From positions 950,939 through 1,014,938 of the forward strand of contig CAWCLG010000006.1 in the NCBI GenBank assembly GCA_963796335.1: DNA of 64,000 nt. The letters run 5' to 3'. Under the pieces are notes generated by a model that worked only from the letters and a program-made list of their open reading frames with translations, ran no database searches and was not told the origin of the DNA. Shown here in pieces: positions 16,235-64,000 of the stretch; the first letter of the stretch is position 1, and each line of letters begins with the position of its first letter. This DNA comes from an uncultured Gemmatimonadales bacterium (GTDB lineage Bacteria; Gemmatimonadota; Gemmatimonadetes; Gemmatimonadales; GWC2-71-9). A program made the translations under genes and the position numbers.

Positions 16235-16340
16235 TCCGTGACGGAAGAGGTTCGGTGATGCTAGCACCCGGGTGGGAGCCGGACAAGGATACCAGCGCTC
16301 CGGCGGCCGTTCTATGTTCCGTCTCCCCACTGGAGACGGC

Positions 16341-17951
16341 ATGCTCCGATTGACCACGTTCGGCGGGGTGGAGCTCCGCGAAGACGGGGCCCCCCACCTC
16401 GGCGCCGCGACCCAGCGCCGCCGCCTCGCGCTCCTCGTCCTGCTCGGCAGCGCTCGCGCGCCGGTGGCGCGGGACAAGCTGGTCGCCTGGCTCTGGCCCG
16501 ACCATCCGTCCGAGCAGGCCCGTCACTCCCTCCGCCAGGCACTGCACACCCTCCAGCGGTCGCTGCCCGGCGTGGTGCTGGTCAGCGGTGAGAACCTGGC
16601 GCTCGATCCCGCGCGCATCGCCACCGACGTGGGAGAGCTGGAGGACGCGGCGTTGGCCGGGACGGAGGACGCGATCGTCACGCTGTACCGGGGGCCGTTC
16701 CTCGACGGGTTCTTCCTGAACGACGCGCCGGCCTTCGAGCGGTGGGCCGATGGCCAGCGGGTCCGCTACGCCGGCCTCTTCACCGCGGCCCTGGAGTCGG
16801 TGGCCGGGCGCGCCGGCCGCGCCGGCAATCATGTCGAGGCGATCGGATGGTGGCGCCGGCTCACCGGCGAGGACAGCCTGAACGCCCGCTACGCCCTCGG
16901 CCTCATGCGAGCCCTTGCCGACGCTCAGGACCGCGCCGGCGCCCTCCGCTATGCGGGAGTCTATGCGGGGATGATGCGGCAGGAGCTGGGAGCCGCGGTG
17001 GATCCGGCCGTCGAGGCGTTCGCCCGCCGGCTCCGCGAGGCCGAGCCCGAGAGCGCGGAGGCCTCGACTCCGGCGCCGCTGGTCCAGACGCGGGAGCGAG
17101 CCCGGCATCGCCAGCGAACCTGGCTCGAGCGCACCTTCGCCGACCGCTACCTGCTGGCCCCGTCGTCTTCCGGGGGCACCGCCGTGGTTTCCTACCGGGC
17201 GCGACGGCTCGAGGCCGGGGACGAGGTGGAGATTCACCTGCTCGATCCCGGGCTGTCCGTCGCGGCCGATCCCGACCGGCTGCTGGCCTCCCTCGAACGA
17301 GTCGCCCAGATGCGCGCGCCGCGGATGGGACCGCTGCTCGAGGTCGGCAGTGCCGACGGCGTGGTCTACTATGTGACGTCGCGCCCGCCGGGGGAGACGT
17401 TGCGCGAGAAGCTCGGTCGAGAGCGGCAGCTGCCGTTGCCGGAGGCGGTCGCCATCACCGATGGGATCGGGGAGGCACTGGAGGCGGCCCACGCTGGGGG
17501 CGTCCGGCACGGGGACCTGCGGCCGCGGCACGTGCACGTGAATGACGGAGACGTCGTCGTGGCCGGCTTCGGGATCGCGGACGCCTTGCTCGACGCGACC
17601 CGGTCCGACCGGTCGTCCGCCATGCTCCGGTTCGGGTCGCCAGCCTATCAGAGTCCGGAACAGCTCGCGGGCGACCCACGCCTTGACGAGCGGTCCGACC
17701 TCTACAGCCTGGGCTGCATTCTTTTTGAGATGCTGGCCGGCGAGGTGCCGTTCGCCAGCGCCGACCGGCCGGCCCTGATCCACGGCAAGCTCACCGGCGG
17801 CGCCGCGTCGGTGCGCCCGCGCCGCGATTCCGTGAGCGACGCGCTCGACCAGGTCGTGAGCCGCTGCCTGGCCCGCTCTCCGGCCGACCGGTTTCCCTCC
17901 GCCACCGCTCTCCGCGCCGCGCTGCATGCCGCCACCCATCTCCCGGCCTGA
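16341..17951 (+). CDS. SARP (winged helix + BTAD) regulator fused to a degenerate kinase-like (pseudokinase) domain
   Basis: The N-terminal part reads MLRLTTFGGVELRE...QRRRLALLVLL...LYRGPFLDGFFLNDAPAFERW...YALGLMRAL. In the C-terminal domain the beta3 Lys position is VEIHLL, the catalytic loop is HGDLRPRHV and DFG is replaced by GFG. SPAYQSPEQ and DLYSLGCILFEML are retained. An alternative ATG lies at 16314. Confidence 0.85.
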   Translation: MLRLTTFGGVELREDGAPHLGAATQRRRLALLVLLGSARAPVARDKLVAWLWPDHPSEQARHSLRQALHTLQRSLPGVVLVSGENLALDPARIATDVGELEDAALAGTEDAIVTLYRGPFLDGFFLNDAPAFERWADGQRVRYAGLFTAALESVAGRAGRAGNHVEAIGWWRRLTGEDSLNARYALGLMRALADAQDRAGALRYAGVYAGMMRQELGAAVDPAVEAFARRLREAEPESAEASTPAPLVQTRERARHRQRTWLERTFADRYLLAPSSSGGTAVVSYRARRLEAGDEVEIHLLDPGLSVAADPDRLLASLERVAQMRAPRMGPLLEVGSADGVVYYVTSRPPGETLREKLGRERQLPLPEAVAITDGIGEALEAAHAGGVRHGDLRPRHVHVNDGDVVVAGFGIADALLDATRSDRSSAMLRFGSPAYQSPEQLAGDPRLDERSDLYSLGCILFEMLAGEVPFASADRPALIHGKLTGGAASVRPRRDSVSDALDQVVSRCLARSPADRFPSATALRAALHAATHLPA

Positions 17952-23085: not shown

Positions 23086-23149
23086 GTCATCCTGAGCGAA
23101 GCGAAGGAGACCATGTCGATCTCCGCTCCTTCGCTTCGCTCAGGATGAC
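23086..23149. repeat. REP-like palindromic element (24-bp arms, 16-nt loop)
   Basis: GTCATCCTGAGCGAAGCGAAGGAG (23086-23109) pairs with CTCCTTCGCTTCGCTCAGGATGAC (23126-23149), a perfect inverted repeat. It lies in an intergenic region between two minus-strand genes. Confidence 0.85.
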
Positions 23150-23176
23150 ATGCGCTTAGGATGATATTAGCGACGC

Positions 23177-26790: not shown

Positions 26791-26869
26791 GGGAACCTCG
26801 GTGTAAAGGGACGGATGTCCCATTGTCGAACTCGGGTATGGCTATGTCAAGGAAGCAGCGCCCGGCCGC

Positions 26870-28342
26870 TCAGCGGATGTACCTGAGATCGAGGTCCGTC
26901 TCGCTCCGATACAGGACGTGCAGCCGCCCCGAGCCGTCCAGCGCCGCCGAGGTCCAGGTGCCGACGTCGCCCGCCTGGTCCACGGCCACCGATCGCCAGC
27001 TCGCCCCGGCGGTACAGACGGCGGTGCAGGTGGCATACTTGAGATCGCCGTTGCTGGCGTCGCGGTACACCACGTGTAGTCGGCCGTCGCCGTCACGGGC
27101 GAGCGAAGTGTACTGGCCCACGTTACCGGGCTGATCCACCGCCAGCGAGGTCCAGTTGGTCACCGTCCCGCACTGCGCGGCGCACGTCGCGTAGGTCAAG
27201 TCGCCGTTGCTGTTGTCGTAATAGCTGAGGTGGACTCCGTTGCTCCCGTCGAGCGCCATGGACGGGTTCGACCCGGCGCCCTCGTCCACGGTGATCTCGC
27301 TCCAATTGGCCGCGGTCGTGCATCCGGCGCCGCACGTCGCGTAAGCCAGGGTGGTATTGAAGGCGCGCGGCCAGGCCGCGTGAACCCGGCCGGTGCCGTC
27401 CACCGCGATGACGGCCTTCTGCGCCCCGGGTCCCAGATCGCCCAGGAGGGCACTGGTCCAGGCTTCAGGTGTGGCGCACTCCGCCTCGCAGGTGGAGTAC
27501 TTGAGGTTGAAGTTGGTGAGGTCGAAGTAGGCCGCGTGGAGCCGCCCGCCATCGTCCGCCGTAAGCGACCCGAAACCGGTGACGTTGCCGACGCTGTCGA
27601 CCGTCGCCGCCGTCCAGCTCGCGGGAGTGGTGCACGCCGCGGTACAGGTGGCGTACCGCACGTCGAGGTTGTCGATGTCGGCGTAGATCACGTGCAGGCC
27701 GCCTTCCGGGTCGATCGCCAGCGAGGCTGACTGCCCCACGTTCCCGTCCTCGTCCACGGTGATGGCCGTCCAGTTGGCGGCGGTGGCGCACTCCGACTCG
27801 CAGGTGGCGTACCGGAGATCCTCACCGGCCCCGTCCCAATAGACCGCATGCAGCCGCCCGTTCGCATCCACCGCAAGCGAGATTGCGCTGCCTTCGCCGC
27901 TCAGTTGGTCCACGGCACCCGCCTGCCAGGCCCTCGTGGTGAAGCTCCACCCCTCCGCTTCCGAGAGTGGTTCCCCTTCGTCGTCGGTGATCCCGGTCGT
28001 CAGCTCGGCCTGATACAGGGTGGCCGGCAGGAGCGGACCCACCAGCCGCGCGGTGCGGCTCCCGGCGTCATAGGTGACCGCCGTGGGGAGCGGGCTGCCG
28101 CCGGCGCGGAGGACGAAGGTCTCGGTAGTCACCGTCGCGCCGATGACGTCGCGATTGAACGACGCGGTCAGGGGGACGCCGGTCTCGACATCGTCCGCGG
28201 CATCCGCGGGGCTTACCGCCGTGACAGCAAGGGGGTCCGGCGTCGGGGAGGGATCCTGGGTGTCGTCGCCACAGCCCAGCAGGCACAGCCCCAACAGCCA
28301 GAGAGATCGGCCGGCTGAGGCGGTTGTCGTCGTGGTGGTCAT
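26870..28342 (-). CDS. lipoprotein with an Ig-like N-terminal domain and six ~45-aa YATC(x3)C...NW repeats (predicted beta-propeller)
   Basis: Lipobox LWLLGLCLLGC. Ig-like stretch LAVTAVSPADAADDVETGVPLTASFNRDV. Repeats LRYATCESECATAANW, VRYATCTAACTTPASW, LKYSTCEAECATPEAW, LAYATCGAGCTTAANW, LTYATCAAQCGTVTNW and LKYATCTAVCTAGASW, with a terminal LRYIR. Confidence 0.8.
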   Translation of the reverse strand: MTTTTTTASAGRSLWLLGLCLLGCGDDTQDPSPTPDPLAVTAVSPADAADDVETGVPLTASFNRDVIGATVTTETFVLRAGGSPLPTAVTYDAGSRTARLVGPLLPATLYQAELTTGITDDEGEPLSEAEGWSFTTRAWQAGAVDQLSGEGSAISLAVDANGRLHAVYWDGAGEDLRYATCESECATAANWTAITVDEDGNVGQSASLAIDPEGGLHVIYADIDNLDVRYATCTAACTTPASWTAATVDSVGNVTGFGSLTADDGGRLHAAYFDLTNFNLKYSTCEAECATPEAWTSALLGDLGPGAQKAVIAVDGTGRVHAAWPRAFNTTLAYATCGAGCTTAANWSEITVDEGAGSNPSMALDGSNGVHLSYYDNSNGDLTYATCAAQCGTVTNWTSLAVDQPGNVGQYTSLARDGDGRLHVVYRDASNGDLKYATCTAVCTAGASWRSVAVDQAGDVGTWTSAALDGSGRLHVLYRSETDLDLRYIR

Positions 28343-28369: not shown

Positions 28370-28426
28370 AAGATGCCGGTAGGGCGTCCCCGGACCGCCT
28401 CTTGCCCGTCACCCGGGAGGTGACGA
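28370..28426 (-). promoter_or_regulatory. conserved promoter block with GTCAC-N7-GTGAC palindrome (copy A)
   Basis: In gene orientation it reads CGTCACCTCCCGGGTGACGGGCAAGAGGCGGTCCGGGGACGCCCTACCGGCATCTT. It lies 27 nt upstream of ATG 28342. The order and 38-nt spacing match copies at 54604-54660 and 61351-61407. Confidence 0.45.
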
Positions 28427-28445
28427 CATCGTGGCTACCATAGCT

Positions 28446-28519
28446 ATCCCCAGCGCAGCGAGGGACCTTGCCTGGACGGTTCGAGCCATCCGGGCAAAGT
28501 CCCTCGCTGCGCTCGGGAT
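28446..28519. repeat. REP-like palindromic element
   Basis: ATCCCCAGCGCAGCGAGGGACCTTGCC (left arm) pairs with GGCAAAGTCCCTCGCTGCGCTCGGGAT (right arm). It lies between the groEL stop and the upstream region of 26870..28342. Confidence 0.8.
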
Positions 28520-28534
28520 GAAGCGGCAGTGCCG

Positions 28535-30945: not shown

Positions 30946-31104
30946 TTGAACTCCTTGACTTATAGAGACTTATATGCGCTTAACCAGTATGGTTGCAGAC
31001 TCGCATACTAGTCGGTTGTACTACTCTTGTCAAGTTAATCATACAGTTGCGAGAAATAGGCTCCATACTTTACTATTCGCGGTCAATGAGATCCTGGAGC
31101 CCCA

Positions 31105-39161: not shown

Positions 39162-39247
39162 CTTCATCCCGAGCGCAGCGAGGGATCTTGCCTGGGGACG
39201 GTTCGAACCGTCCACGGGCAAGGTCCCTCGCTGTGCTCGGGATGAAG
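39162..39247. repeat. REP-like palindromic element (31-bp arms)
   Basis: CTTCATCCCGAGCGCAGCGAGGGATCTTGCC (39162-39192) pairs with GGCAAGGTCCCTCGCTGTGCTCGGGATGAAG (39217-39247). It belongs to the same family as 28446-28519. Confidence 0.85.
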
Positions 39248-49782: not shown

Positions 49783-52122
49783 CTATCGCCCCACCTTCCG
49801 TCGCAGGGACTCGAATCGCTGGTCTCCTTGCAGCGGATCGAGCTGGGGATCGACGGCCAGAAACGCCATCGAGTGCGCGCGCTCGCCGTACGCCCGGTCC
49901 AGCCAATCCATGGCCGTCTGCCGGTCACCCACGGCCAGATACGCCTTCGCGATCTCATAGGAGGGCACGTAGTGCTCCCCCGGCTCGGCCAGCCTGGTGA
50001 GGATCGCCCGCGCCGAATCGCGCTGCCCGGCCGTACCCAGCACATGGGCCAGGGCCACCCGGGTAAGCGGGGTACCCCTGGAGAGCCGGACGGCCTGGTC
50101 GATCTCGGCTCGCGCCGAATCCATCTGACCGAGCTGCTCGAACGCCTGTCCTCTCCAGAGGTGCGCCAGCTCGAAGTCGGGATTCAACTCGAGCGTGCGG
50201 CTGAACTGCGCGGAGGCCTGGTGGAACTCACGGGCGTAGTAGAGGCTCCAGCCCAGGGCGGCGTTGGCGATGAGGGATAGCGGATCGCGCTCCTGTGCCT
50301 CTCGCATTTGGGCGACGGCTTCGGAGAAGCGGCCCATCGCAGTGAGGTGATTGCCGTACCATTGGTGCGCCGTGGAGTACGCGGGATCCAGCGCGATCGC
50401 GCGGCGAAACTCCTCCTCCGCCGCGGCCCAGCGCCAGTCGTAATAGAGGTGGACGTAGCCCAGTGTCGCATGGGGAGCCGCCAGCCCCGGGTCCAGCTCC
50501 AGGGCGCGGCGCGCGGTGCGCTCCGCCGCCGGAAACGCTTCGCGCGGGGGCAAGTAGTCGTAGAAGCCGGAGACCGCGTAGGCGTCGGCCAGCCCGGCGT
50601 GGGCTCGGGCCCAATGCGGCGCGCGCTTGGCGGCCTGACGCAACAGATCGACCGCCGTCAGCAGGCTGGCGGCCGTCCGCCGGTGCCAGGCGTAGCGGCC
50701 CTTGAGATAGAGATCGTAGGACTCGGCATCGGGTGCGGCCCCGCGTTCGACCTCGGGAGCCGCGATGCCGGCGCCGAGGTTCCCTCGGAGCCGCGCCGCG
50801 ACCTCCTCGGCGATCGCCTGCTGCACCGCGAAAGCATCCTCGAAATCGCGCTCGTAGGTCTCGGACCAGAGCTGGTAGCCCTGGGCGGTCTCCACCAGGC
50901 GAGTGGTGACCCGAAGCCGCGGCCCCATCTTCCGCACGCTCCCCTCCAGCACCGCGCCGACACTCAGCCTGCGGCCGACTTCCCGCACATCGACCCGCTG
51001 GCCCTTGAAGGAGAAGGCGGAGGTGTGCGCCGCGACCCGGAGCCCTTCCATCCGGCCGAGGGCGGCGCCGATCTCCTCGGTGATCCCGTCGCTCAGATAT
51101 TCCACGTCGGCGTCGGCGCTCAGGTTCTCGAAGGGAAGCACGGCCATCGTGGTGATGGGCGCCGCCGGTTCGGCGGCGGTGTGCAGCCGACTGAAGACGA
51201 CGAGGGATGCGACGGTGATGGCGGAGGCGGCGGCGATCAGCGGGAGCCGACGGTGAGGGGCGGCGGAAGCGGCGGAAGCGGCGGTTGCGGCGGTTGCGGC
51301 TGTTGCGTGTGTGGCTTTGGCTGATTCTACGAAGGTCGGGATCGCGGCGTCCGCCGTAACCACCGCAACCGCCGTATCCGCCGTAACCGCCCCCGCCGCC
51401 TCCGGCGGCAGGAGCGGCGCCGTCAGCATCTGATGAGCCAGCGCGGTCACCTCGGGATCGGGCGGGGCGGCAAGTTCCAACTGCAGCAGCCTGCCGTGCA
51501 GGCCGGCGTGCTGGATCGCCGCGGGCCGGTCGCCGGAGCGCTCCAGTGCCCGCATCAGGCGCAGGGCGATCCGGGAGCTGAACCGGTCGTGCGCCGAAAC
51601 CCGACGCCACCAGCGCACCGCCCCTTTCCACTCACCCGCCCGCTCGGCCGATTCCGCCAGCCGTTCGACCGCGGCCCCGAACTCGTCGGCGAGCCGCCGC
51701 CGCTCGCTCTCGATCCACCGCTCCAGCTCTTCGCCCTCCGGCACGAAGAACCCGTCCAGGAACGGACCGGCATAGAGCGCGACCGCCGCCTCGTCCTCGC
51801 CCCGGGCGATGGCATCCTCGAACTGGCCTACGTCGGAGGGAAGGTCGGGGGAGAGCCGGAGCCCGTCCCCGGCGGCGAGGATGGCTTCGCGCTCGAGGGC
51901 CTGATTGATCCGGTAGACCGAATCGGACAGGAGATGGCGGGCGCGTTCGGCATCGGCCTCGGGCCAGAGGTAGGCGAGCAGCTTGTCGCGGCTCATCCCC
52001 CGGTCCCGGGCCGACGCGAGCAGGGCGGCGAGCGCCAAGCGCCGGCGCTGGACCGCCCGCCCGGTCATCGGGCCCGCGGGCGACACCAGGGCCGCCCCAC
52101 CGAACAGCTTGAGACAAAACAT
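49783..52122 (-). CDS. SARP/BTAD regulator with TM, TolB-like module and TPR region
   Basis: MFCLKLFGGAALVS...QRRRLALAALLA...LYAGPFLDGFFVPEGEELERW...IALRLMRAL, then the TM, then AVLPFENLSADADVEYLSDGITEEIGAAL...LRVTTRLVETAQGYQLWSETY, followed by TPR repeats. The ORF is intact at 779 aa. Confidence 0.85.
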   Translation of the reverse strand: MFCLKLFGGAALVSPAGPMTGRAVQRRRLALAALLASARDRGMSRDKLLAYLWPEADAERARHLLSDSVYRINQALEREAILAAGDGLRLSPDLPSDVGQFEDAIARGEDEAAVALYAGPFLDGFFVPEGEELERWIESERRRLADEFGAAVERLAESAERAGEWKGAVRWWRRVSAHDRFSSRIALRLMRALERSGDRPAAIQHAGLHGRLLQLELAAPPDPEVTALAHQMLTAPLLPPEAAGAVTADTAVAVVTADAAIPTFVESAKATHATAATAATAASAASAAPHRRLPLIAAASAITVASLVVFSRLHTAAEPAAPITTMAVLPFENLSADADVEYLSDGITEEIGAALGRMEGLRVAAHTSAFSFKGQRVDVREVGRRLSVGAVLEGSVRKMGPRLRVTTRLVETAQGYQLWSETYERDFEDAFAVQQAIAEEVAARLRGNLGAGIAAPEVERGAAPDAESYDLYLKGRYAWHRRTAASLLTAVDLLRQAAKRAPHWARAHAGLADAYAVSGFYDYLPPREAFPAAERTARRALELDPGLAAPHATLGYVHLYYDWRWAAAEEEFRRAIALDPAYSTAHQWYGNHLTAMGRFSEAVAQMREAQERDPLSLIANAALGWSLYYAREFHQASAQFSRTLELNPDFELAHLWRGQAFEQLGQMDSARAEIDQAVRLSRGTPLTRVALAHVLGTAGQRDSARAILTRLAEPGEHYVPSYEIAKAYLAVGDRQTAMDWLDRAYGERAHSMAFLAVDPQLDPLQGDQRFESLRRKVGR
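51260..51307. repeat. tandem 9-bp repeat (5 units) inside the SARP linker
   Basis: GCGGCGGAA x2, GCGGCGGTT x2 and GCGGCTGTT encode TAATAATAASAASAA on the minus strand. A second 9-bp array lies at about 51351-51390. Confidence 0.7.
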
Positions 52123-53120: not shown

Positions 53121-54566
53121 TCACTCCAGGTAGCGGAGGTCCATGTCGTCCTGGCCCTGGTACGCCACCGCCACCCGGCCGGTTCCATCGACCGCGATGG
53201 AGGTGTACTGCCCCACCTGGCCGTTCTGATCCAGCCCCGCGGTCTGCCAACCGCCTTCGGTTGTGCAGGCCGCGGCGCAGGTCGCGTACATGAGGTCGGC
53301 GTTGGTGTCATCGTAGTAGCTGATGTGCAGACGGCCGCCGTCATCCAGCGCGAGCGACGCGAATCTGCCCGCATTCCCGGTCCCGTCGACGATCACCGAG
53401 GTCCAGTTGGCCTCGGTGGTGCACTCTGAGGCGCACCCGATATATCGGAGCTCGTCGTTACGGCGGTACGCGATGTGAATCCCGCCGCTGGGATCCGCCT
53501 TGAGACTGGAATAGATGCCGAGGTCGTCGATAGTGATGGCCGTCCAGTTGGCGTCGGTGGTGCATCCGGCGGCGCACGTGGCGTACTTGAGGCTCGCGGC
53601 GGTGAACTCGTGGTAGCCGATGTGGAGGCGTCCCGTACCATCGATCGCGATCGAGGCGGAAAAGCCGCCCCCGGCGGTCAGGTCGATCCCGCCGGAAGTC
53701 CAGTTGCCGGCGTCGGTGCACTCCCCGCCGCAGGTGGCGTATTTGAGCTCACCGTTGTCGAGGTCGTAGTAGCTCGCGTGGAGTCGTCCGTTCGACCCGA
53801 TCGCCAGCGTTCCGTAGAGTCCGACGTTGCCCGGTTCATCAACCGCCACGGTGGTCCAGTTGGCCGCGTTGGTGCAGTCGGCGGCGCAGGTGGCGTACTT
53901 GAGATCCTCGTTGATTCCATCCACGTAGGTCACATGCAGCCCGCCGTTCGCGTCCGCCACGATCGACGGGTTCAGGCCCACGATTCCGTCCTCGTCCACC
54001 GTGACTCCCGACCAGCTGGCCGCGGAGGTGCAGTCCGCGCTGCAGGTCGAGTATCGCAGCCGGCTGCCGATCTGCTCGTAGTGGGCGACGTGACGCACGC
54101 CATCGCCGTCCAGCGTCAGGGAAGCCGTGAATCCCGCGGATCCATCCGCTTCCGCCGCGACTGCCTGGGGCGCCCCGGTGGTGAAGGTCCATTCCTCCGG
54201 CGCCGACAAAGGACCGCCGTCCTCATCGGTGATGCCCTCCGCCAGGTCGACCTGGTACTGGCCCAGCGGCAGCAGCGGAGCCACCAGGCGCGCGGTGCGG
54301 GTCGCGTCGTCGTAGGTCACGCCGGCCGGGAGGGGATTCCCGCCGGCCCGGAGCCGGAAGGTCGCCGCGTTCAGCGTCGCGGGATCGAGCGGCCGGTTGA
54401 AGGTGGCCGTGACGGAGACGCCGAAGGGGACCGCGTCGGCGCCGTCGGCTGGGCTCACGGCGGTCACCGCCAGCGGGTCGGGCTCCCCGGGATCGTTCGA
54501 GTCGCTGCCGCAGGCGGGCAGGAGGCTTAGCAAAAGACAGAACAGCAGGTTGGCGATCCGTCGCAT
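53121..54566 (-). CDS. paralog of 26870..28342, a lipoprotein with an Ig-like domain and six YATC(x3)C...NW repeats
   Basis: Lipobox LLLSLLPAC. Repeats LRYSTCSADCTSAASW, LKYATCAADCTNAANW, LKYATCGGECTDAGNW, LKYATCAAGCTTDANW, LRYIGCASECTTEANW and LMYATCAAACTTEGGW, with a terminal LRYLE. Confidence 0.8.
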   Translation of the reverse strand: MRRIANLLFCLLLSLLPACGSDSNDPGEPDPLAVTAVSPADGADAVPFGVSVTATFNRPLDPATLNAATFRLRAGGNPLPAGVTYDDATRTARLVAPLLPLGQYQVDLAEGITDEDGGPLSAPEEWTFTTGAPQAVAAEADGSAGFTASLTLDGDGVRHVAHYEQIGSRLRYSTCSADCTSAASWSGVTVDEDGIVGLNPSIVADANGGLHVTYVDGINEDLKYATCAADCTNAANWTTVAVDEPGNVGLYGTLAIGSNGRLHASYYDLDNGELKYATCGGECTDAGNWTSGGIDLTAGGGFSASIAIDGTGRLHIGYHEFTAASLKYATCAAGCTTDANWTAITIDDLGIYSSLKADPSGGIHIAYRRNDELRYIGCASECTTEANWTSVIVDGTGNAGRFASLALDDGGRLHISYYDDTNADLMYATCAAACTTEGGWQTAGLDQNGQVGQYTSIAVDGTGRVAVAYQGQDDMDLRYLE

Positions 54567-54603: not shown

Positions 54604-54660
54604 AGTATGCCACGCCGCCGTCTCCGCAACGCCCCCTGCCCGTCACCCCGGAGGTGACGG
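54604..54660 (-). promoter_or_regulatory. conserved promoter block with GTCAC-N7-GTGAC palindrome (copy B)
   Basis: In gene orientation it reads CCGTCACCTCCGGGGTGACGGGCAGGGGGCGTTGCGGAGACGGCGGCGTGGCATACT. It lies 37 nt upstream of ATG 54566. Confidence 0.45.
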
Positions 54661-57047: not shown

Positions 57048-59396
57048 ATGTCCACGGTCTATGTCGCCGAGGAGACGGCGCTCGGTCGCCGGGTGGTGAT
57101 CAAGGTGCCGCCCGCGGAGCTGGCCCAGGCCATGAGCGGCGAGCGGTTCCGGCAGGAGATCCGGTTCGCGGCCAAGCTCACCCATCCGCACATCGTCCCC
57201 TTGCTCACGGCGGGCGAGAGCAACGGGGTGCCCTGGTACACCATGCCGTACGTCGAGGGCGAGTCGCTTCGCATGCGGCTCGCCCGGGGACCGCTGCCGC
57301 TCGCCGAAGCGGTGAGCCTGTTGCGCGACGTGGCCCGAGCCCTGGCTTACGCGCACGAGCACGGCGTGGTCCACCGCGACATCAAGCCCGACAATGTCCT
57401 GCTGACCGGCGGCACCGCGATGGTGACCGACTTCGGCGTCGCCAAGGCATTGAGCGCGGCGACGGACGCGGGGCAGGGGGCCACCACGACCCTCGGTGTG
57501 GTGCTGGGCACGCCCGCTTACATGGCGCCGGAGCAGGGCGCCGGCGATCCGGCCACCGATCACCGGGCCGACATCTACGCCTTCGGCTGCCTCGCCTACG
57601 AGACGCTGACCGGCGCGCCGCCGTTCACCGGACGCCCGCCGGCCGCGCTCCTCGCCGCCCACGCGATCGAGTCTCCCGAGCCGGTGGCGCGGCGTCGGGC
57701 GGAGATACCGCCGGCGCTGGCGGCCCTGGTGATGCGCTGCCTGGCCAAGCGCCCGGCCGACCGGCCGCAGACCGCGGCCGAGATCTTCAGTGCGCTCGAC
57801 GGCGTGCCGGTCAGCGCGGGGATACGGCGGAAGCCACTCGCGATCTTCGCGGGCATGCTGGCGATCCTGCTGGGGCTCGGCGTGGTCTTCTCCTCCCGCC
57901 TCGGCCGCGGGCCGAGTGCCGGCGCCGGTCCGGCCGCCCCGAGCCCGCTCCACTCGGTCGCGATCATCCCCTTCGTCAACACCGGCGGCAACCCGGAGGA
58001 CGAATACTTCTCCGACGGCATGACCGACGAGCTGGCCCACGCCATCGCCGGGCTCTCCGACATCCGGGTGGCTGGTCGCACCTCCTCCTACGCCTATAAA
58101 GGAAAGCCGGCCACGGTCCAGGACATCGGACGGGCGCTCGGCGTCAAAGGCGTCATCGCCGGCACGGTCCGGCGGTCCGGCGACCGGCTCCGGGTCACCG
58201 TGCAGCTCTCCAGCGCCGACGACGGGTTCCAGCGCTGGTCCCACGAGTACGAGCGGCAGGCGTCGGATGTGTTCGCGCTCCAGGACGAGCTGACCCGGGC
58301 GATCGTGGTCGAGCTGGAGCCCGCGCTCCGCGGGACGGCGGCCGCGGTGGCGACGGAACGGCGAGGCACCGATGACGCCGAGGCGTACGAGCACTATCTC
58401 CGGGGCCGCTACTTCTTCGCCCGGCGTGGCACACCCGGCCTGCTGAAGGCGCTGGAGGAGTACCGCGCCGCCATCGCCCGCGACTCGGCGTTCGCTCGGG
58501 CCTGGGCCGGGATCGCTCTAGTCCATGTGGTCTTCCCCTCATACGAGTCGGTGAACGCGGATTCGGTCAACCAGCTCGGCATCGCGGCGGCGAAGCGGTC
58601 GCTGGCGCTGGACTCGACCGTTACGGAAGCCCATCTCGCCTTGGCCAACGCGCTGGCGAACCAGATGCACCTGGCGGAGGCTGACGCCGAGTTCCGCCGG
58701 GTGCTGGCGATCTCGCCGAACGACGCGATGGCGAATCAGTGGCACGCCTCGATACTCCAGGCGCAAGGGAGAATGGACGAGGCGATCCAGGCGTCCCGCC
58801 GCGCGGTCGCCCTGGAGCCGCTCTCGGCCGTCACCAACACTGACCTGGCCGTCGTGCTGCTCTCCTTGCGGCAGTACCCCGAAGCCTTTGAACAGGCCCG
58901 GAGGGGATTGGAGCTGGATTCGACCTATACCTACAGCCGGGTGGCGCTCGCCTGGCTGCACGGCGTCACCGGACAGCCGGACAGTGCCCTGGCTCAACTC
59001 GGTCTCGATCGGCCGGCCGAAGACGGGCTCTTCTGGCGGGGCGCGGGCTGGCGCGGGCTGGCGGCATGGGCGTACGGCCTCGCAGGGCGACGGAAGGACG
59101 TCGAGCGGATGCGGAACGAGATCATGCGTCAGCCGGGTGGTCCGGTCGGCTACGATCAGGCGATGGCGGACCTGGCGCTGGGGGATCTCGAGGGAGCGGT
59201 GCGTGGGCTGGCGCGGAGCCTCGAGCGGCATGAGCTGCTGGGGATGGAAGCGAATCCCGGCTGCACGCCGGTGTTCGACCGGCTTCGGGCGCTGCAGAGC
59301 TACCAGAAGCTGATGAAGGAGTACGGCATTCGGGTCTGCGAGCCCCCGCGCGCCTCTGCCATGCCTCACCCCTCCACCCCGCCGACATTGTCCTGA
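57048..59396 (+). CDS. Ser/Thr protein kinase with TM, TolB-like module and TPR region; the 5' end is probably mis-set
   Basis: Kinase motifs VVIK, HRDIKPDN, DFG and GTPAYMAPEQ. Then AIIPFVNTGGNPEDEYFSDGMTDELAHAI...LRVTVQLSSADDGFQRWSHEY, followed by TPR repeats. The in-frame upstream sequence PSLRDTLQHTLAGSYTIERELGGGG (the Gly loop) has no start codon back to TAA 56936. Confidence 0.85.
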   Translation: MSTVYVAEETALGRRVVIKVPPAELAQAMSGERFRQEIRFAAKLTHPHIVPLLTAGESNGVPWYTMPYVEGESLRMRLARGPLPLAEAVSLLRDVARALAYAHEHGVVHRDIKPDNVLLTGGTAMVTDFGVAKALSAATDAGQGATTTLGVVLGTPAYMAPEQGAGDPATDHRADIYAFGCLAYETLTGAPPFTGRPPAALLAAHAIESPEPVARRRAEIPPALAALVMRCLAKRPADRPQTAAEIFSALDGVPVSAGIRRKPLAIFAGMLAILLGLGVVFSSRLGRGPSAGAGPAAPSPLHSVAIIPFVNTGGNPEDEYFSDGMTDELAHAIAGLSDIRVAGRTSSYAYKGKPATVQDIGRALGVKGVIAGTVRRSGDRLRVTVQLSSADDGFQRWSHEYERQASDVFALQDELTRAIVVELEPALRGTAAAVATERRGTDDAEAYEHYLRGRYFFARRGTPGLLKALEEYRAAIARDSAFARAWAGIALVHVVFPSYESVNADSVNQLGIAAAKRSLALDSTVTEAHLALANALANQMHLAEADAEFRRVLAISPNDAMANQWHASILQAQGRMDEAIQASRRAVALEPLSAVTNTDLAVVLLSLRQYPEAFEQARRGLELDSTYTYSRVALAWLHGVTGQPDSALAQLGLDRPAEDGLFWRGAGWRGLAAWAYGLAGRRKDVERMRNEIMRQPGGPVGYDQAMADLALGDLEGAVRGLARSLERHELLGMEANPGCTPVFDRLRALQSYQKLMKEYGIRVCEPPRASAMPHPSTPPTLS

Positions 59397-59480
59397 CAGG
59401 TGGCACCCCGGCGGATGTCACATCGGGAAGTTGCGGGATGCTCCTAGAGCATCTCCCTCACCCGCGCCGCGGAGGGTCTT

Positions 59481-60248
59481 ATGCCGATCAGCCACGTATT
59501 TCCCGCGCCCCTGTCGCTGCTTCTCCTTATGAGCCTTTCGGCTTGCGACAAGCCGACAGCCCCCACCAGAACCGACGCCGAGCAGACCGCTCCCACCGGC
59601 GACCTCGAGCTCTCGGCGGCGGAGTCGGCCGATGCCGAGGTCTCCGCCGCCGCCGCCCCGTTCGCCGACGCCGAAGTGTTCTTCGAGCTGAACGCGACGG
59701 ACGACGACCTTGGGTTCCAGCTCTTCCTCGATTCCGACGACCCGTGGAAGCGGGTCAGAGTGCTGGATCCCGACCTCAGAGACATCCTCGTCTTTCAAAC
59801 CGCGGGCAGACTTTCCCGTCTGGGACTCACCGAGCTGCGGTTCGAGAGCGCGGAGCCGTCGCCCGCTGCAGTGCTCGCGCTGTTCCCGGAGGGCCGGTAC
59901 CGCTTCCGCGGCCGCACAGTCGGCGATCGGCAGCTGAACAGCGTAGCCACGCTGTCGCACGACTTCCCCGCCGAGCCGACGTTGTCGCCGTCGGGCGGGC
60001 AGGTCGTGGATCCCCGCAATGCGGTTGTCGAGTGGAATACGCCGGGCGCGGAGCGGGTCGAGCTGATCATCGAGCAGGACGAGCTGGAGCACTTCTTCGA
60101 CGTCACCGTCTCGGCCTCGACTAGGCGGATGCGGATTCCGCCCCAGTTCCTCACGCCGGGGACGGATTACAAGATCGAGATCCTATCGATCGGCGAGAAC
60201 GGCAACCGGATCATCGTGGAGAGCACGTTCCGCACCGCGGAACCCTGA
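59481..60248 (+). CDS. lipoprotein, unknown function
   Basis: Lipobox LLLLMSLSAC. The ORF is intact at 255 aa. Confidence 0.6.
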   Translation: MPISHVFPAPLSLLLLMSLSACDKPTAPTRTDAEQTAPTGDLELSAAESADAEVSAAAAPFADAEVFFELNATDDDLGFQLFLDSDDPWKRVRVLDPDLRDILVFQTAGRLSRLGLTELRFESAEPSPAAVLALFPEGRYRFRGRTVGDRQLNSVATLSHDFPAEPTLSPSGGQVVDPRNAVVEWNTPGAERVELIIEQDELEHFFDVTVSASTRRMRIPPQFLTPGTDYKIEILSIGENGNRIIVESTFRTAEP

Positions 60249-61284
60249 GCGATCCGCAGGTACGGGTCATCCGCCACTGCCCGCGGATCCGGTACTGGCC
60301 CCGCTGGCCGGTGAAGGTGAACTGGCCGATGGCCCCCGCGACCTCGTTCCCCAGCACTGCGTCGGCCGCGAGCCGCGGATCGAGCCCGGCGAAAGCGAGT
60401 CCCGGCGGGAAGACATCCTCGTCGAACTCGTCCCGCAGCCAGCGGACGAAGCGGTCGAGCACCGAGCCGGCGGCCTGGGAGATGGTCGCCGGGTGGACCC
60501 CGGCGATGCGCCGCTCGACCGTTTGACGCAGGATCGGGCTGGCCTTCGCCCAGGCGCCGGCGAGGGCGTCCGCGAAGCCCGCCCGATCCGCCACCTCCAG
60601 AAACGCCGCCGCGCCGTATGTCAGCGACTGCTCGCCTAGTGTCTCGGGCACCGGGAACTCGCAGAATTTCCTCCCCGGAACGCCGTACTCCTTCCGCACT
60701 CCGTTCCCGAAATCGTGGCGCACCAGGAACCGTCCGACCGGGGCGACATCGCCGCCGGCATCGAGGGCCAGGCCGCCGACCGCGATCTCCTCGCCCTTCG
60801 GCGCATCCGCCGTGCGGTCGAGGCAGCTGACGTCGGTGATGTAGAGGGCGAGGGTGGTGCGGGACAGCCGGGTCGGGGACTGGGCGGCGGCGCGCGGCGG
60901 AGTGGTTTTGCTCGCCGTGGCCCTCCGCGGCACGCGGAATCCGGCCTCCACGGGCGGGAGATGCCGGGCGGCGATGGCGAGTCCGCCGCAGGCGAACTCC
61001 TCGGCGCCGAACTGGCCGTACCGGCCGAACATCGCCCGGCGGCTCAGGGCCGGAGCCATGGCGATCCGTCGGGCCCGCGAGTGATAGACCCAGCGCTGCT
61101 CCACCGGCCGGAGGCTGATGGCCCCCTGAAACGCCTCTTCCAGGCTGCCGAACGGCAGGCGGATCTCGGGGTGCGCCGCGGCCGAGACGAAGGAGTATTG
61201 CAGGCCCTGGAGCAGGTCGGTGGCGACGGCCTCCAGCTCACGATCCAGCGGGGGTACCTGGCCAAGGGCGATGGAGGGGGTCAT
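60211..61284 (-). CDS. hypothetical protein, no recognisable motif
   Basis: ATG 61284 follows GAGGAA. The track start at 61350 is a GTG inside the promoter block. The 3' end overlaps the convergent lipoprotein gene by 38 bp. Confidence 0.5.
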   Translation of the reverse strand: MTPSIALGQVPPLDRELEAVATDLLQGLQYSFVSAAAHPEIRLPFGSLEEAFQGAISLRPVEQRWVYHSRARRIAMAPALSRRAMFGRYGQFGAEEFACGGLAIAARHLPPVEAGFRVPRRATASKTTPPRAAAQSPTRLSRTTLALYITDVSCLDRTADAPKGEEIAVGGLALDAGGDVAPVGRFLVRHDFGNGVRKEYGVPGRKFCEFPVPETLGEQSLTYGAAAFLEVADRAGFADALAGAWAKASPILRQTVERRIAGVHPATISQAAGSVLDRFVRWLRDEFDEDVFPPGLAFAGLDPRLAADAVLGNEVAGAIGQFTFTGQRGQYRIRGQWRMTRTCGSLRVPRCGTCSPR

Positions 61285-61350
61285 GGCGGTTCCTCGGTGT
61301 TGGGCGGATTGCGCGGCCCGACCCGCGCGCCTACCGTAAGAGACCGGCAC

Positions 61351-61407
61351 AGTATGCCGGTCCCCCGTCTCCGCATCGCCCCCTGTCCGTCACTCGGCAG
61401 GTGACGT
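61351..61407 (-). promoter_or_regulatory. conserved promoter block with GTCAC-N7-GTGAC palindrome (copy C), in a divergent intergenic region
   Basis: In gene orientation it reads GACGTCACCTGCCGAGTGACGGACAGGGGGCGATGCGGAGACGGGGGACCGGCATACT. The palindrome lies about 50 nt upstream of the divergent SARP-AAA-TPR gene. Confidence 0.45.
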
Positions 61408-61454
61408 CTTGAGCGCAGAGCCAGCAGTGGCCGGGCTCGTCCGGGTCCGGACCC

Positions 61455-64000
61455 TTGGTACGATTGACGTTCGACGCGCGCATGGCCCCGAGGCCGGGGT
61501 CCGCGCGGTCGTGTCCCAGCCCAAGCGGTTCGCCCTGCTGGCCTACCTCGCCGCCGCCACGCCCCACGGCTTCCACCGCCGCGACACCCTCCTCGCCCTG
61601 TTCTGGCCCGAGCTGGACCTGGCCCAGGGGCGCCATGCCCTCCGGCAGAGCCTCCACTTCCTCCGCCTCCAGCTCGGCCCGGTCGTGGTCCGCCGGGGTG
61701 ATGAAGACGTCGGGCTCGACCCGGCGATGCTCTGGTGCGACGTCCCCGCCTTCGAGCAGGCGCTGGAACAGGGACAGCCCGAGACGGCGCTGGACCTGTA
61801 CGCCGGCGATTTCCTCCCCGGCTTCTTCGTCTCCGGCGTGTCGGCGGAGTTCGAGCAGTGGCTGGATATCGAGCGGGCCCGACTCCGCGCCGCCGCCGCG
61901 CGGGCCGCGTGGTCGGTCGCCGATCGGGCGGAGGGGGAAGGCCGGGGGCCGGACGCCGCTCACTGGGCCAGGCGGGCGGTTGCGCTGGCGCCCGACGACG
62001 AGGGCGGCGTGCGCCGTCTCATGGCGCTGCTCGACCGGTTCGGCGACCGGTCCGGTGCGCTCCGGGCCTACGAGCAGTTCGCCGAAGGGCTGCGCACCGA
62101 GTTCGCCGCCGATCCGGCGCCCGAGACCCAGGTGCTGCTGGAGGCGGTGCGCCAGGGGCGGAGCGCGCCGGCCGCCGTGCCTCCGCCGCCCTCGCCACTG
62201 AGCACGGACACGCCGCTCCCGGTCCGCTCCACGACCGATCCCGATTTCGACCAGCTGGTCGGCCGCGACCACGTCCTCCAGCTCCTGCGGGCCGAGCTCA
62301 AGCGGGCGCTGGCCGGCGGTTGCGAGCCGGTGCTGGTGCTGGGCGAGGCGGGTATCGGCAAGACTCAGCTCGCGAGGTACTTCGCGCGGCTGGCGCGGTC
62401 CGAAGGGGCGCGCTGCCTGGTCGCCCACTTCTTCGACTATCAGGGCAGCCGGCTCGCTCCTTACGAAACGCTGCTCGACGTCCTCGCCTCCGCCCTGGAG
62501 GACGACGACACGGATCTCGCCCCGTCGCTCCCGGAGCGGGTGCAACAGCGGCTCGGCGTGACGCTGCCGCCCGAGCTGCGCCACGCCGCCGACGGCGGTC
62601 CCGTCCGGGCGCCGGCCGACTCCGGGCACGTGAGCGCGGTCCTGGGCCGCTGCTTCCGCCGGCTGAGCCGGGAGCGCCCGCTCGTCCTGCTCCTCGACGA
62701 TCTCCAGTGGGCGGACGAGGCGAGCCGCCAGGTGATCGGCTACCTCATGCGGACCGCGGTCGCCGATCCCCTGCTCATCGTCGGACTCGCCCGGCTGGAG
62801 GAAGCGGAGGAGCAGACCCACCCGCTGGCCGCCTGGCTGCGGCAGGAGGCGGCGGCGCGCGGGTTCACCAGCGTGCGACTGCGCACGCTGACCGACACGG
62901 AAGTCGGCATCGAAGTCGCCAGGGTGTTCGCCGCGAGCGGAGGAGTGACGCTCCCGGCCGCCGTCCCCGCGACGCTGCACAAGCTCACCGGCGGCAATCC
63001 CTATTTCCTGGTCGAGACCATCCGCTTCCTGCTGGAGCACGGGCTCTTGATCCGGGTCCCCGGCTCGGGCTGGACCTGGCACGACCCGGAGGGGCTCTTT
63101 GCCGGCGGGATCGCGGGCGGCCGTTCGGCCGGCAACACCGCGGAGCGGCTGGTGCTCCCCGCCTCCCTCGCGGCCGCGGCCGGCGCGCGACTGGACCGGC
63201 TCTCGGCGGAGGTGCGGGAGGTGGTGGAAACCGCGGCGGTGATCGGCGAGGAGTTTCGCCTGCGGACGCTCGCGGCGGTGGATGGACGGGACGAGGCCGC
63301 GCTCGAGCCGCTGCTCGCCGCCGCGGTCCGCGCCGGCGTGATCAGCGAGAGCGGGCTCTCAGCCGGCGAGGATGCCCGCTTCGCACACACGCTCCTGCGC
63401 CGGGCCTGCTATGCGGCGGTGCCGTCGCGCCGCCGCCGGCGGCTGCACGAGCAGGTGGCCCGGGGGCTCGAGCGCATCTACCGCGACGGGCTCGACCGCG
63501 TGGCCCCCGCGATCGCGGCCCACCTGGCCGCCGCGGCCCAGCCCGGCGAAGCCCTGCTCTGGTTCCTCCGCGCGAGCCGGGCGGCCGCCGCGCGCGGACA
63601 GTGGCGCGAGGCGCTGGAATCGATCGAGCGCGCGCGAGCGGTGGAGAACGAAGCCGCCAAGGCCGGCGTCGAGGTGGATGGCGCCATCCTGCCGGCGCTC
63701 CGCTTCGCCGAGGGCGAGGCGCTGCTCGCCGCGGGTCGGCTGCGGGAGTCCGCCGCGGCTCTGACCGACGCCGCGCGGCTCGCCCTGGCGGGTGGACCGG
63801 CGGGCGGCCCCCAGAGCGCCGAGCAACGGTCGCTGGAGGCGCTGGCGATGCTGCGGCTCGCTCGCGCGCGGGCGAGCATGGCCGAGTACGCCGAGGCCCG
63901 CGCCGCCGCCGAGTCGGCGCACGAGCGGTTCCGCGCGCTGGGCGACGCCGCGGCCGCCGCGGCCGCGCTGGTGCAGCTCGGCGAGATCGACACCGCCCTC
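61455..64000 (+). CDS. AfsR-like regulator (SARP winged helix + BTAD + AAA/NB-ARC-type ATPase + TPR); partial because it runs off the right edge; one frameshift near 61478-61484
   Basis: This gene is absent from the ORF track because it has no stop in the window. TTG 61455 gives LVRLTFDAR, then a frame change leads to GPEAGVRAVVSQPKRFALLAYLAAA...LFWPELD...LYAGDFLPGFFVSGVSAEFEQW...RRLMALL. Walker A is LVLGEAGIGKTQL and Walker B is LVLLLDDLQWAD. TPR-like helices continue to position 64000. Confidence 0.8.

Follow-up and report, generated by a model that had tools for sequence, protein, structure and literature searches.

A conserved promoter block with a predicted SARP operator upstream of three unlinked genes in a Gemmatimonadales genome

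Results

Three genes of the window share an upstream block

We analyzed a 64-kb stretch of Gemmatimonadales DNA (hereafter, the window), whose G+C content is 62–76% and in which reading frames were chosen by third-position G+C. Three of its genes, named A, B and C, are preceded by the block described here (Table 1). Genes A and B encode paralogous lipoproteins, and protein C is unrelated to both of them (best BLASTP E = 0.3), as claimed in a first-pass annotation of the same DNA. Gene C presented no match in Pfam, NCBIfam or PADLOC. Its family comprises 42 proteins, the named ones all being from Gemmatimonadales, and the gene was always found paired with a SARP gene. The AlphaFold model of protein C (pLDDT 84.8) contains a helical domain and a beta-sandwich, for which the PDB offered no convincing fold match (the best one, to C2-like domains, reached only E = 0.017). 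Convergent genes come after B and C. These two genes look like single-gene transcription units, and gene A is probably one as well. Between gene A and the SBP56/methanethiol-oxidase-like gene we observed a canonical TTGACA-17-GACAAT site, which suggests that the latter gene is probably transcribed from a promoter of its own and that its start codon is the in-frame ATG 26790 rather than 26823. This ATG is preceded by GAGG.

Table 1. Coordinates of the block copies, their parts, and the genes and other elements discussed in the text
Feature	Position	Strand	Description
Gene A	26870–28342	-	Lipoprotein (lipobox LLGCG); Big_5 Ig-like domain and BNR_4-like repeats (Pfam)
Copy A	28370–28425	-	Block position 1 (C of CGTCAC) at 28425, position 56 at 28370
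Copy A, left inverted arm	28425–28420	-	CGTCAC
Copy A, unit 1	28412–28406	-	GTGACGG
Copy A, unit 2	28401–28395	-	GAGGCGG
Copy A, unit 3	28390–28384	-	GGGACGC, followed by an 8-nt gap
Copy A, -10-like hexamer	28375–28370	-	CATCTT
Gene B	53121–54566	-	Lipoprotein paralog of A, 50% identical; Big_5 and BNR_4-like repeats
Copy B	54604–54659	-	Block position 1 at 54659, position 56 at 54604
Copy B, left arm	54659–54654	-	
Copy B, unit 1	54646–54640	-	GTGACGG
Copy B, unit 2	54635–54629	-	GGGGCGT
Copy B, unit 3	54624–54618	-	GAGACGG
Copy B, -10-like hexamer	54609–54604	-	CATACT
Gene C	60211–61284	-	357 aa, no Pfam domain
Copy C	61351–61406	-	Block position 1 at 61406, position 56 at 61351
Copy C, left arm	61406–61401	-	
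Copy C, unit 1	61393–61387	-	GTGACGG
Copy C, unit 2	61382–61376	-	GGGGCGA
Copy C, unit 3	61371–61365	-	GAGACGG
Copy C, -10-like hexamer	61356–61351	-	CATACT
Gene C leader	~61285–61340	-	After the block
Candidate regulator, AfsR-like large SARP	61427–64000	+	Runs off the window end, reads away from copy C; fused to AAA_16 and TPR
SARP-domain gene	16272–17951	+	Fused to Ser/Thr kinase
SARP-domain gene	49783–52122	-	Fused to TPR
TTGACA-17-GACAAT	26822–26850	-	Between gene A and the SBP56/methanethiol-oxidase-like gene
TTGACA-17-TAGTAT	31005–31033	-	Before the gene string 30631–30945/groES/groEL
REP-like hairpins	28445–28525, 39165–39245, 23086–23150	-	Just downstream of genes
Look-alike of the block	59417–59456	+	Between a Ser/Thr kinase gene (57048–59396) and a lipoprotein gene starting at 59481

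Reading the window directly, we found three ungapped 56-nt copies of the block, all on the minus strand: copy A (CGTCACCTCCCGGGTGACGGGCAAGAGGCGGTCCGGGGACGCCCTACCGGCATCTT), copy B (CGTCACCTCCGGGGTGACGGGCAGGGGGCGTTGCGGAGACGGCGGCGTGGCATACT) and copy C (CGTCACCTGCCGAGTGACGGACAGGGGGCGATGCGGAGACGGGGGACCGGCATACT). These copies end 27, 37 and 66 nt, respectively, before the ATG of genes A, B and C. Pairwise identity within the block is 42/56, 42/56 and 47/56 (75–84%), and the flanks are at background, with 13–21/56 identical positions in the 56 nt upstream and 8–10/27 in the 27 nt downstream (23–38%). No terminal repeats or duplications were found around the block, and similarity ends at its edges. 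Both the presence of a conserved block before three unlinked genes and its description as a shared cis-element, not duplicated flanking DNA, thus hold. The coordinates also bear out the claimed plus-strand distance of exactly 38 nt from the start of the hexamer to that of the palindrome in each copy (28370/28408, 54604/54642 and 61351/61389).

A search with a 30-nt degenerate core allowing up to three mismatches returned three matches in the window, against 0.00 expected, and these were copies A, B and C; the exact palindrome GTCAC-N7-GTGAC is likewise confined to them in the window. Apart from the copies reported here, an nhmmer profile of the block recovered none in the window or in 68 loci. 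This profile also missed the look-alike that the first-pass annotation had placed at 59417–59456, which shares only GTCAC and GCATCT with the block and can be set aside. The look-alike contains an inverted repeat of its own (GATGCTC/GAGCATC).

Copies of the block in other Gemmatimonadota

We searched for the block in genome and metagenome collections and upstream of the genes of protein homologues; the loci drawn from these sources are labeled L0xx. A strict DNA pattern yielded 22 matches in the genome collection and 34 in the metagenome collection, most of them chance matches in unrelated phyla. The only real copies among these were found in L010, L014, L017, L024, L031, L034 and L043: L014 and L017 are Gemmatimonadales genomes, L024, L031 and L034 are metagenome contigs, and L010 carries a diverged copy identical to that of L043. 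Overall, 11 more copies were identified in other Gemmatimonadota genomes and metagenomes, each located upstream of a gene and facing it. Within the collections scanned, the genomes holding the block were exclusively metagenome-assembled genomes of Gemmatimonadota.

Orthologous copies of copy C are present in L014, L017, L024, L031/L034, L059, L060, L061 and L062. Every gene C orthologue that we examined retains the block upstream, including those of L059, L060, L061 and L062, whose proteins are 46–62% identical to C. The block is therefore kept at orthologous positions although the gene C proteins are just 46–73% identical across genomes. For gene A, the block is kept at 52 of 56 positions in L057 (protein 94% identical to A), it is complete upstream of a homologue in L066 (52% identical to A/B) and it is shortened upstream of another one in L063 (58% identical to A). 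We did not find the block upstream of the gene A homologues in L058 or in L064/L065, the latter being loci in which the gene is the second of a tandem pair. Copy C and its orthologues account for most of the 15 copies, so that no more than about six lineages are independent.

With proteins no more than 50% identical, paralogs A and B still have blocks that agree at 42/56 positions with flanks at background. The fact that these diverged paralogs keep matching blocks and that most of positions 1–42 are near-invariant in 14 copies suggests that selection acts on the block.

The leader of gene C presents, after the block, a conserved TACGGTAGGC, a hairpin GCGCGG/CCGCGC and then CAATCCG, and these elements occur at the same place in L014, L017 and L059–L062. 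The hairpin reads CGCGA/TCGCG in L017 and L060, which is a compensatory change. The TACGGCAGGC part is also found after the block in L066, upstream of a Big_5 gene.

Internal layout of the block

We built a conservation profile of the block from 14 aligned copies. Positions 1–8, 10–11, 14–20, 22–25, 27–30, 32, 34–36 and 38–42 are invariant or nearly so; positions 43–47 are free; and positions 48–56 (CGGCATACT) are conserved, A52 and T56 being the same in every copy. Invariance is strongest in the arms of the palindrome, which are unchanged in 14/14 copies save for one C-to-T change. The motif G-N-G-R-C-G is found at block positions 14, 25 and 36 (i.e., 11 nt apart) in every three-unit copy, which defines three units: GTGACGG (positions 14–20), GRGGCGN (25–31) and GRGACGS (36–42). 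Unit 1 forms the right arm of the palindrome, and an inverted copy of this unit makes up the left arm (reverse complement AGGTGACG). In 14 of the 15 promoters, the shortened L063 among them, the last unit ends 8 nt before the hexamer; L061 has a gap of 9 nt. In L059, the spacer of the palindrome is N8 instead of N7. When searching the window for GNGRCG-N5-GNGRCG-N10-ANNNT, we obtained three matches against 0.12 expected, exactly copies A, B and C.

Two promoters depart from this layout in ways that support a modular, unit-wise reading of the sequence. Unit 3 of L066 is GTGACGG, identical to unit 1. The L063 promoter (CGTCACCTGCAAG-GTGTCGA-GGGG-GGGACGG-GCCGCCGC-TAAGGT) has, after the palindrome, just the two units GTGTCGA and GGGACGG, then a gap of 8 nt and the -10, and it is shorter by exactly 11 nt, the length of one unit. 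The self-similarity of the block at a lag of 11 nt is 0.44, as compared to 0.45 for the best lag in shuffled G-rich sequence, and is not significant; the repeat reading therefore rests on the layout and on these two variant promoters, not on statistics. Two features are unusual for a SARP box. The "4-nt spacers" between the units (positions 22–24, 32 and 34–35) are as conserved as the heptamers, which is atypical of the boxes described, and we found no precedent for the inverted upstream copy among described SARP sites, which are direct repeats.

These observations modify the proposal that the palindrome is an activator site near -53. The center is correctly placed if CATACT is the -10, but the palindrome is not the whole signal since positions 1–42 are nearly all conserved. 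Its right arm is the first of three units spaced by 11 nt that reach to 8 nt before the -10, an arrangement that fits the layout published for SARPs.

Promoter character

The hexamer at the end of the block reads CATACT, CATCTT, CAAACT, TATGCT or TAAGGT across the 15 promoters. A2 and T6 never change, in agreement with the earlier view of CATACT as a -10 element: an A at position 2 and a T at position 6 are the mark of the -10 recognized by the housekeeping sigma factor. We found no -35 in the block (0–2 of 6 matches to TTGACA at spacers of 16–18 nt), and a scan for sigma-70 promoters gave no match in it. This combination of a weak -10 with no -35 looks like an activator-dependent promoter. 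Canonical TTGACA-17-TAnnnT promoters exist in this organism, for instance before groES. The site TTGACA-17-TAGTAT, located before the groES/groEL gene string (Table 1), indicates that the organism uses canonical housekeeping promoters. We also considered a sigma-54 reading of GGCAT-N-GC and ruled it out by eye, as the spacing of GG and GC differs among copies.

All 15 copies of the block lie upstream of a gene and are oriented toward it, at distances of ~27–120 nt. Only ~26 nt separate copy A from the strong hairpin that follows groEL, leaving no room for another upstream promoter.

The hairpin after groEL has a folding energy of -78 kcal/mol (z = -10.4) and is kept in L057. Long, near-perfect REP-like hairpins form a family in the window, with the sequence TTCATCCCGAGCRCAGCGAGGGAC...GTCCCTCGCTGCGCTSGGGATGAAG or the related version GAGCGAAGCGAAGGAG, and none of them is followed by a T-run.

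The neighboring SARP gene

Copy C adjoins a divergent gene starting at GTG 61427 (ATG in L062) or TTG 61409, that is, 2–20 nt from the left edge of the block. Its product has the domain order of an OmpR-type DNA-binding domain with BTAD, an AAA_16/NACHT-like NTPase and TPR (the TPR part being present in the full-length orthologue). BTAD was detected by Pfam at E = 1.5e-13 and AAA_16 at E = 1e-29, along with a NACHT match. TPR_12 was found in the full-length L014 orthologue (1183 aa), and the window copy ends before the region where TPR could be confirmed by Pfam. The AlphaFold (AF2) model of the SARP domain (pLDDT 90.8) shows beta-strands and an HTH followed by a helical bundle. Its best Foldseek matches in the PDB are AfsR in a transcription initiation complex (8k60, 8hvr) and EmbR (2fez/2ff4), over 264–270 columns with E = 8e-9 to 8e-7 and TM 0.53–0.59. 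A profile search against PDB sequences also aligned EmbR (E = 7e-4) and AfsR (E = 0.048) from end to end. A single-sequence search of the PDB with the SARP domain gave no match, such that profile and fold searches were needed. The gene at 61427 thus encodes the predicted OmpR-type winged helix and BTAD that characterize a SARP, and its sequence and model identify the product as a large SARP with the domain order of AfsR.

At least 511 homologues of this SARP domain were found at E ≤ 1e-10, many of them 50–58% identical. Gemmatimonadota is the source of most of the named ones, and fusions to kinases, NTPases, TPR arrays or receiver domains are common among the homologues. The window itself has three SARP-domain genes.

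The N-terminus of the SARP is encoded divergently beside the block in L014, L017 and L059–L062, i.e., in all the gene C loci whose upstream DNA could be read; this count leaves out the short contigs L024, L031 and L034. In L010 (79–879), the block (hexamer TATGCT, weak unit 3) lies between a SARP-TPR gene and a gene for an ECF sigma factor. The SARP domain is there 46% identical to that of the window, in a protein that lacks the NTPase and whose remainder is built differently. Since the linkage persists in L010 with another target, the constant partner of the block is the SARP gene of this subgroup and not a particular target. Two SARP paralogs, in L067 and L068 (51–52% identical), presented no block nearby; the recognition helix of the block-less paralogs is different (LRKSV/LRKAV versus ALRQSL). 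The arrangement of L010 hints at a SARP-to-sigma-factor cascade.

The first-pass annotation had pointed to the AfsR-like SARP-AAA-TPR gene next to copy C as a candidate regulator, and linkage was found wherever upstream DNA was available. Because block and SARP gene adjoin in every such locus, even with another target, this protein appears to be the best candidate. The two further SARP-domain genes of the window and its several Ser/Thr kinases imply that another paralog could be the one that binds the block.

Discussion

A proposed operator for a SARP activator

With moderate confidence, we interpret the block as an activator-dependent promoter of the housekeeping sigma factor whose upstream 42 bp are a predicted SARP operator, most likely that of the divergent SARP-NTPase-TPR neighbor. 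SARP protomers would bind side by side on the three units spaced by 11 bp. With a start taken at about position 63, these units would lie near -49 to -21. A further protomer may occupy the inverted copy at positions 1–8, the partner of unit 1 in the palindrome. Units 2 and 3 would take the place of the missing -35, ending 8 bp before the weak -10 (positions 51–56), much like AfsR at the afsS promoter, where the activator substitutes for the -35 contact and recruits RNA polymerase. The predicted effect is activation. Transcription would start ~7 nt past the hexamer, giving leaders of ~20, 30 and 60 nt. A single operator would then define one regulon of three single genes (the two paralogous beta-propeller-like lipoproteins and gene C), switched by a signal sensed through the NTPase/TPR part. 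Autoregulation is likely as well: with its start codon 2–20 nt from the block, the SARP gene can only be transcribed from a start inside the block or on its far side. In the sequences compared, the block and the candidate regulator gene are conserved together across Gemmatimonadales, and the genome of the window has recruited the block to three unlinked genes.

We find a broader scenario doubtful. In it, SARPs would be a large and diversified signaling family of Gemmatimonadota, fused to Ser/Thr kinases, STAND NTPases, TPR arrays and receiver domains, rather than an actinobacterial specialty. The block would then be their first operator, controlling envelope lipoproteins and a protein of unknown fold instead of antibiotic clusters. 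It would be read by four protomers in a mixed head-to-head and head-to-tail geometry, with three direct sites and an inverted one arranged along four turns of the helix, unlike any described SARP.

Alternative explanations

The strongest invariance within the block is that of the palindrome arms, and the palindrome is kept even in the shortened L063; moreover, the SARP sites described so far are direct, not inverted, repeats. One could therefore argue that GTCAC-N7-GTGAC is the key site, at about -53, of a dimeric regulator (e.g., a CRP/FNR-like protein), with the downstream G-rich tract as promoter context or as the site of a second factor and the SARP neighbor as a coincidence. We consider this unlikely. 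It would leave unexplained positions 20–42, which are almost as conserved as the arms, and the linkage of block and SARP gene, constant wherever it could be checked, would have to be due to chance. A rigid dimer would also disfavor the N8 spacer of L059, and the palindrome is not fixed at -53 since it lies 11 nt nearer the -10 in L063. CRP sites read TGTGA-N6-TCACA and FNR sites TTGAT-N4-ATCAA. The block matches neither consensus: its half-sites, GTCAC...GTGAC, stand in the reverse order of those of CRP and the spacing differs (N7, or N8 in L059). The first-pass suggestion of a CRP/FNR-type regulator is thus not upheld. A promoter of an ECF-type sigma factor, with GTGACGG as the -35, GACGG as the -10 and a start near GGCAT, would make the three genes part of an ECF regulon of envelope proteins. 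The lipoprotein targets A and B fit such a regulon, the block of L010 lies directly upstream of an ECF sigma factor gene, a class that is usually self-transcribed, and the extra base of L061 would be harmless downstream of the putative -10. Nevertheless, this reading is quite improbable in our view. ECF promoters usually present AAC in the -35 and CGT in the -10, 16–17 nt apart, but no copy of the block contains AAC or has CGT at the -10 position, and the candidate elements are 24 nt from start to start versus the usual 21–22. The invariant A and T of CATACT, the left arm and unit 2 would have no role, and no ECF sigma gene is found beside any copy in the window or beside the gene C orthologues.

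The block might also be transcribed as a structured RNA, either a leader or a small RNA, in which GUCACC/GGUGAC forms one hairpin and a second one exposes CAUACU in its loop. The palindrome could indeed form a hairpin of 5–6 bp with a loop of 5–7 nt, the change in L062 is compatible with a G-U pair, and one pair of positions around the hexamer shows C-G, U-A and A-U among gene C orthologues. Apparent compensatory changes around the hexamer in these orthologues did not hold up when the comparison was extended to A, B, L062 and L010. The RNAalifold covariation term is only 0.01 kcal/mol, however, and the two-helix covariation score does not exceed that of shuffles (224/500 reach it). Helix 2 is paired in just 57% of cells and is missing in copy A and L062. 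Rfam 15 gave no match at gathering score in the window, and a search relaxed to E ≤ 10 gave only chance-level matches (E = 6–8) around copy C. In addition, an upstream promoter would not fit before copy A, start codons lie anywhere from 27 to ~120 nt away, and the 11-nt difference of L063 suits the helical phasing of DNA rather than an RNA fold. Taken together, these results make an RNA element very unlikely. Even less credible is a non-regulatory block, dispersed as a repeat or mobile fragment, despite the occurrence of three copies within 33 kb and of a separate REP-like hairpin family in the window. The first-pass annotation would have been overturned by a mobile repeat found in non-promoter contexts, but there is no such instance among the 15 copies, all of which share the same orientation and position relative to the downstream gene. 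Copies are kept at orthologous sites across genomes, and the sharp edges of similarity come with no flanking terminal repeats or duplications.

Significance of the block

Nearly all work on SARPs concerns their role as switches of antibiotic production in Streptomyces, and according to a 2024 review they are exclusive to actinobacteria (PMC10972967), which gives the block moderate interest. The window belongs to a soil phylum that has hardly been studied, and in it a SARP gene with the domain order of AfsR is accompanied by a candidate operator of 42 conserved bp whose predicted regulon is unrelated to secondary metabolism. On the other hand, the SARP domain has more than 500 close homologues, of which the named ones are mostly from Gemmatimonadota. 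The 56-bp DNA and the 270-residue domain constitute a testable candidate pair of operator and regulator, and the block motif can be used to define the regulon in Gemmatimonadales genomes. This system would also offer a natural test of how far the -35-substitution mechanism of AfsR reaches beyond actinobacteria.

Comparison with known systems

As a rule, the direct repeats of SARP promoters follow each other at 11 or 22 bp, and the 3' one is 8 bp away from the -10 (PMC10936776). Both two-repeat operators and operators of three heptamers separated by 4-bp spacers have been described (PMC5930380, PMC10972967). The block likewise places its last unit 8 bp before the -10 in 14 of 15 promoters, and its predicted operator covers or replaces a poor -35 next to a weak -10.

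The closest parallel is the afs box of Streptomyces coelicolor, where two AfsR protomers bind side by side on two 11-bp repeats at the afsS promoter, from -40 to -19, and replace the -35 contact (PMC10936776). Both systems share the order of SARP domain, NTPase/NOD and TPR in the regulator, a poor or absent -35 and a weak -10 (CACTGT at afsS, CATACT here). The units read in the block with an 11-bp period would likewise cover the -35 region and the spacer. Taking the hexamer as the -10, one would place units 2 and 3 within ~1 nt of the -40 to -19 interval. The block differs by its three direct units and one inverted unit versus two repeats, by its unit sequence GNGRCGG and by the conservation of its spacers. 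It is found in Gemmatimonadota, before genes for lipoproteins and a protein of unknown function rather than a small regulator of antibiotic synthesis, and the sequence identity between AfsR and the SARP of the window is only ~24%.

The three heptameric direct repeats with 4-bp spacers of the PimR (SARP-LAL) operator at pimM and of the boxes of ActII-ORF4 and DnrI parallel the three-unit reading of the block, and their two-repeat relatives parallel L063. Unlike the block, the PimR operator does not overlap the -35, its heptamer is CGGCAAG and it has no inverted copy; the known regulators of this kind are pathway-specific and belong to biosynthetic gene clusters. Lying upstream of the core promoter and centered at ~-53, the palindrome of the three-unit copies recalls the class I sites of CRP and FNR. 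The likeness ends with the order and spacing of the half-sites, the conservation running 24 nt past the palindrome and the 11-nt shift of the palindrome in L063. Finally, the winged helix of PhoB/OmpR-type regulators has the same fold and binds direct repeats spaced by 11 bp that replace the -35 (the pho box). The block is distinguished from these boxes by its linkage to a BTAD-bearing SARP instead of a response-regulator gene.
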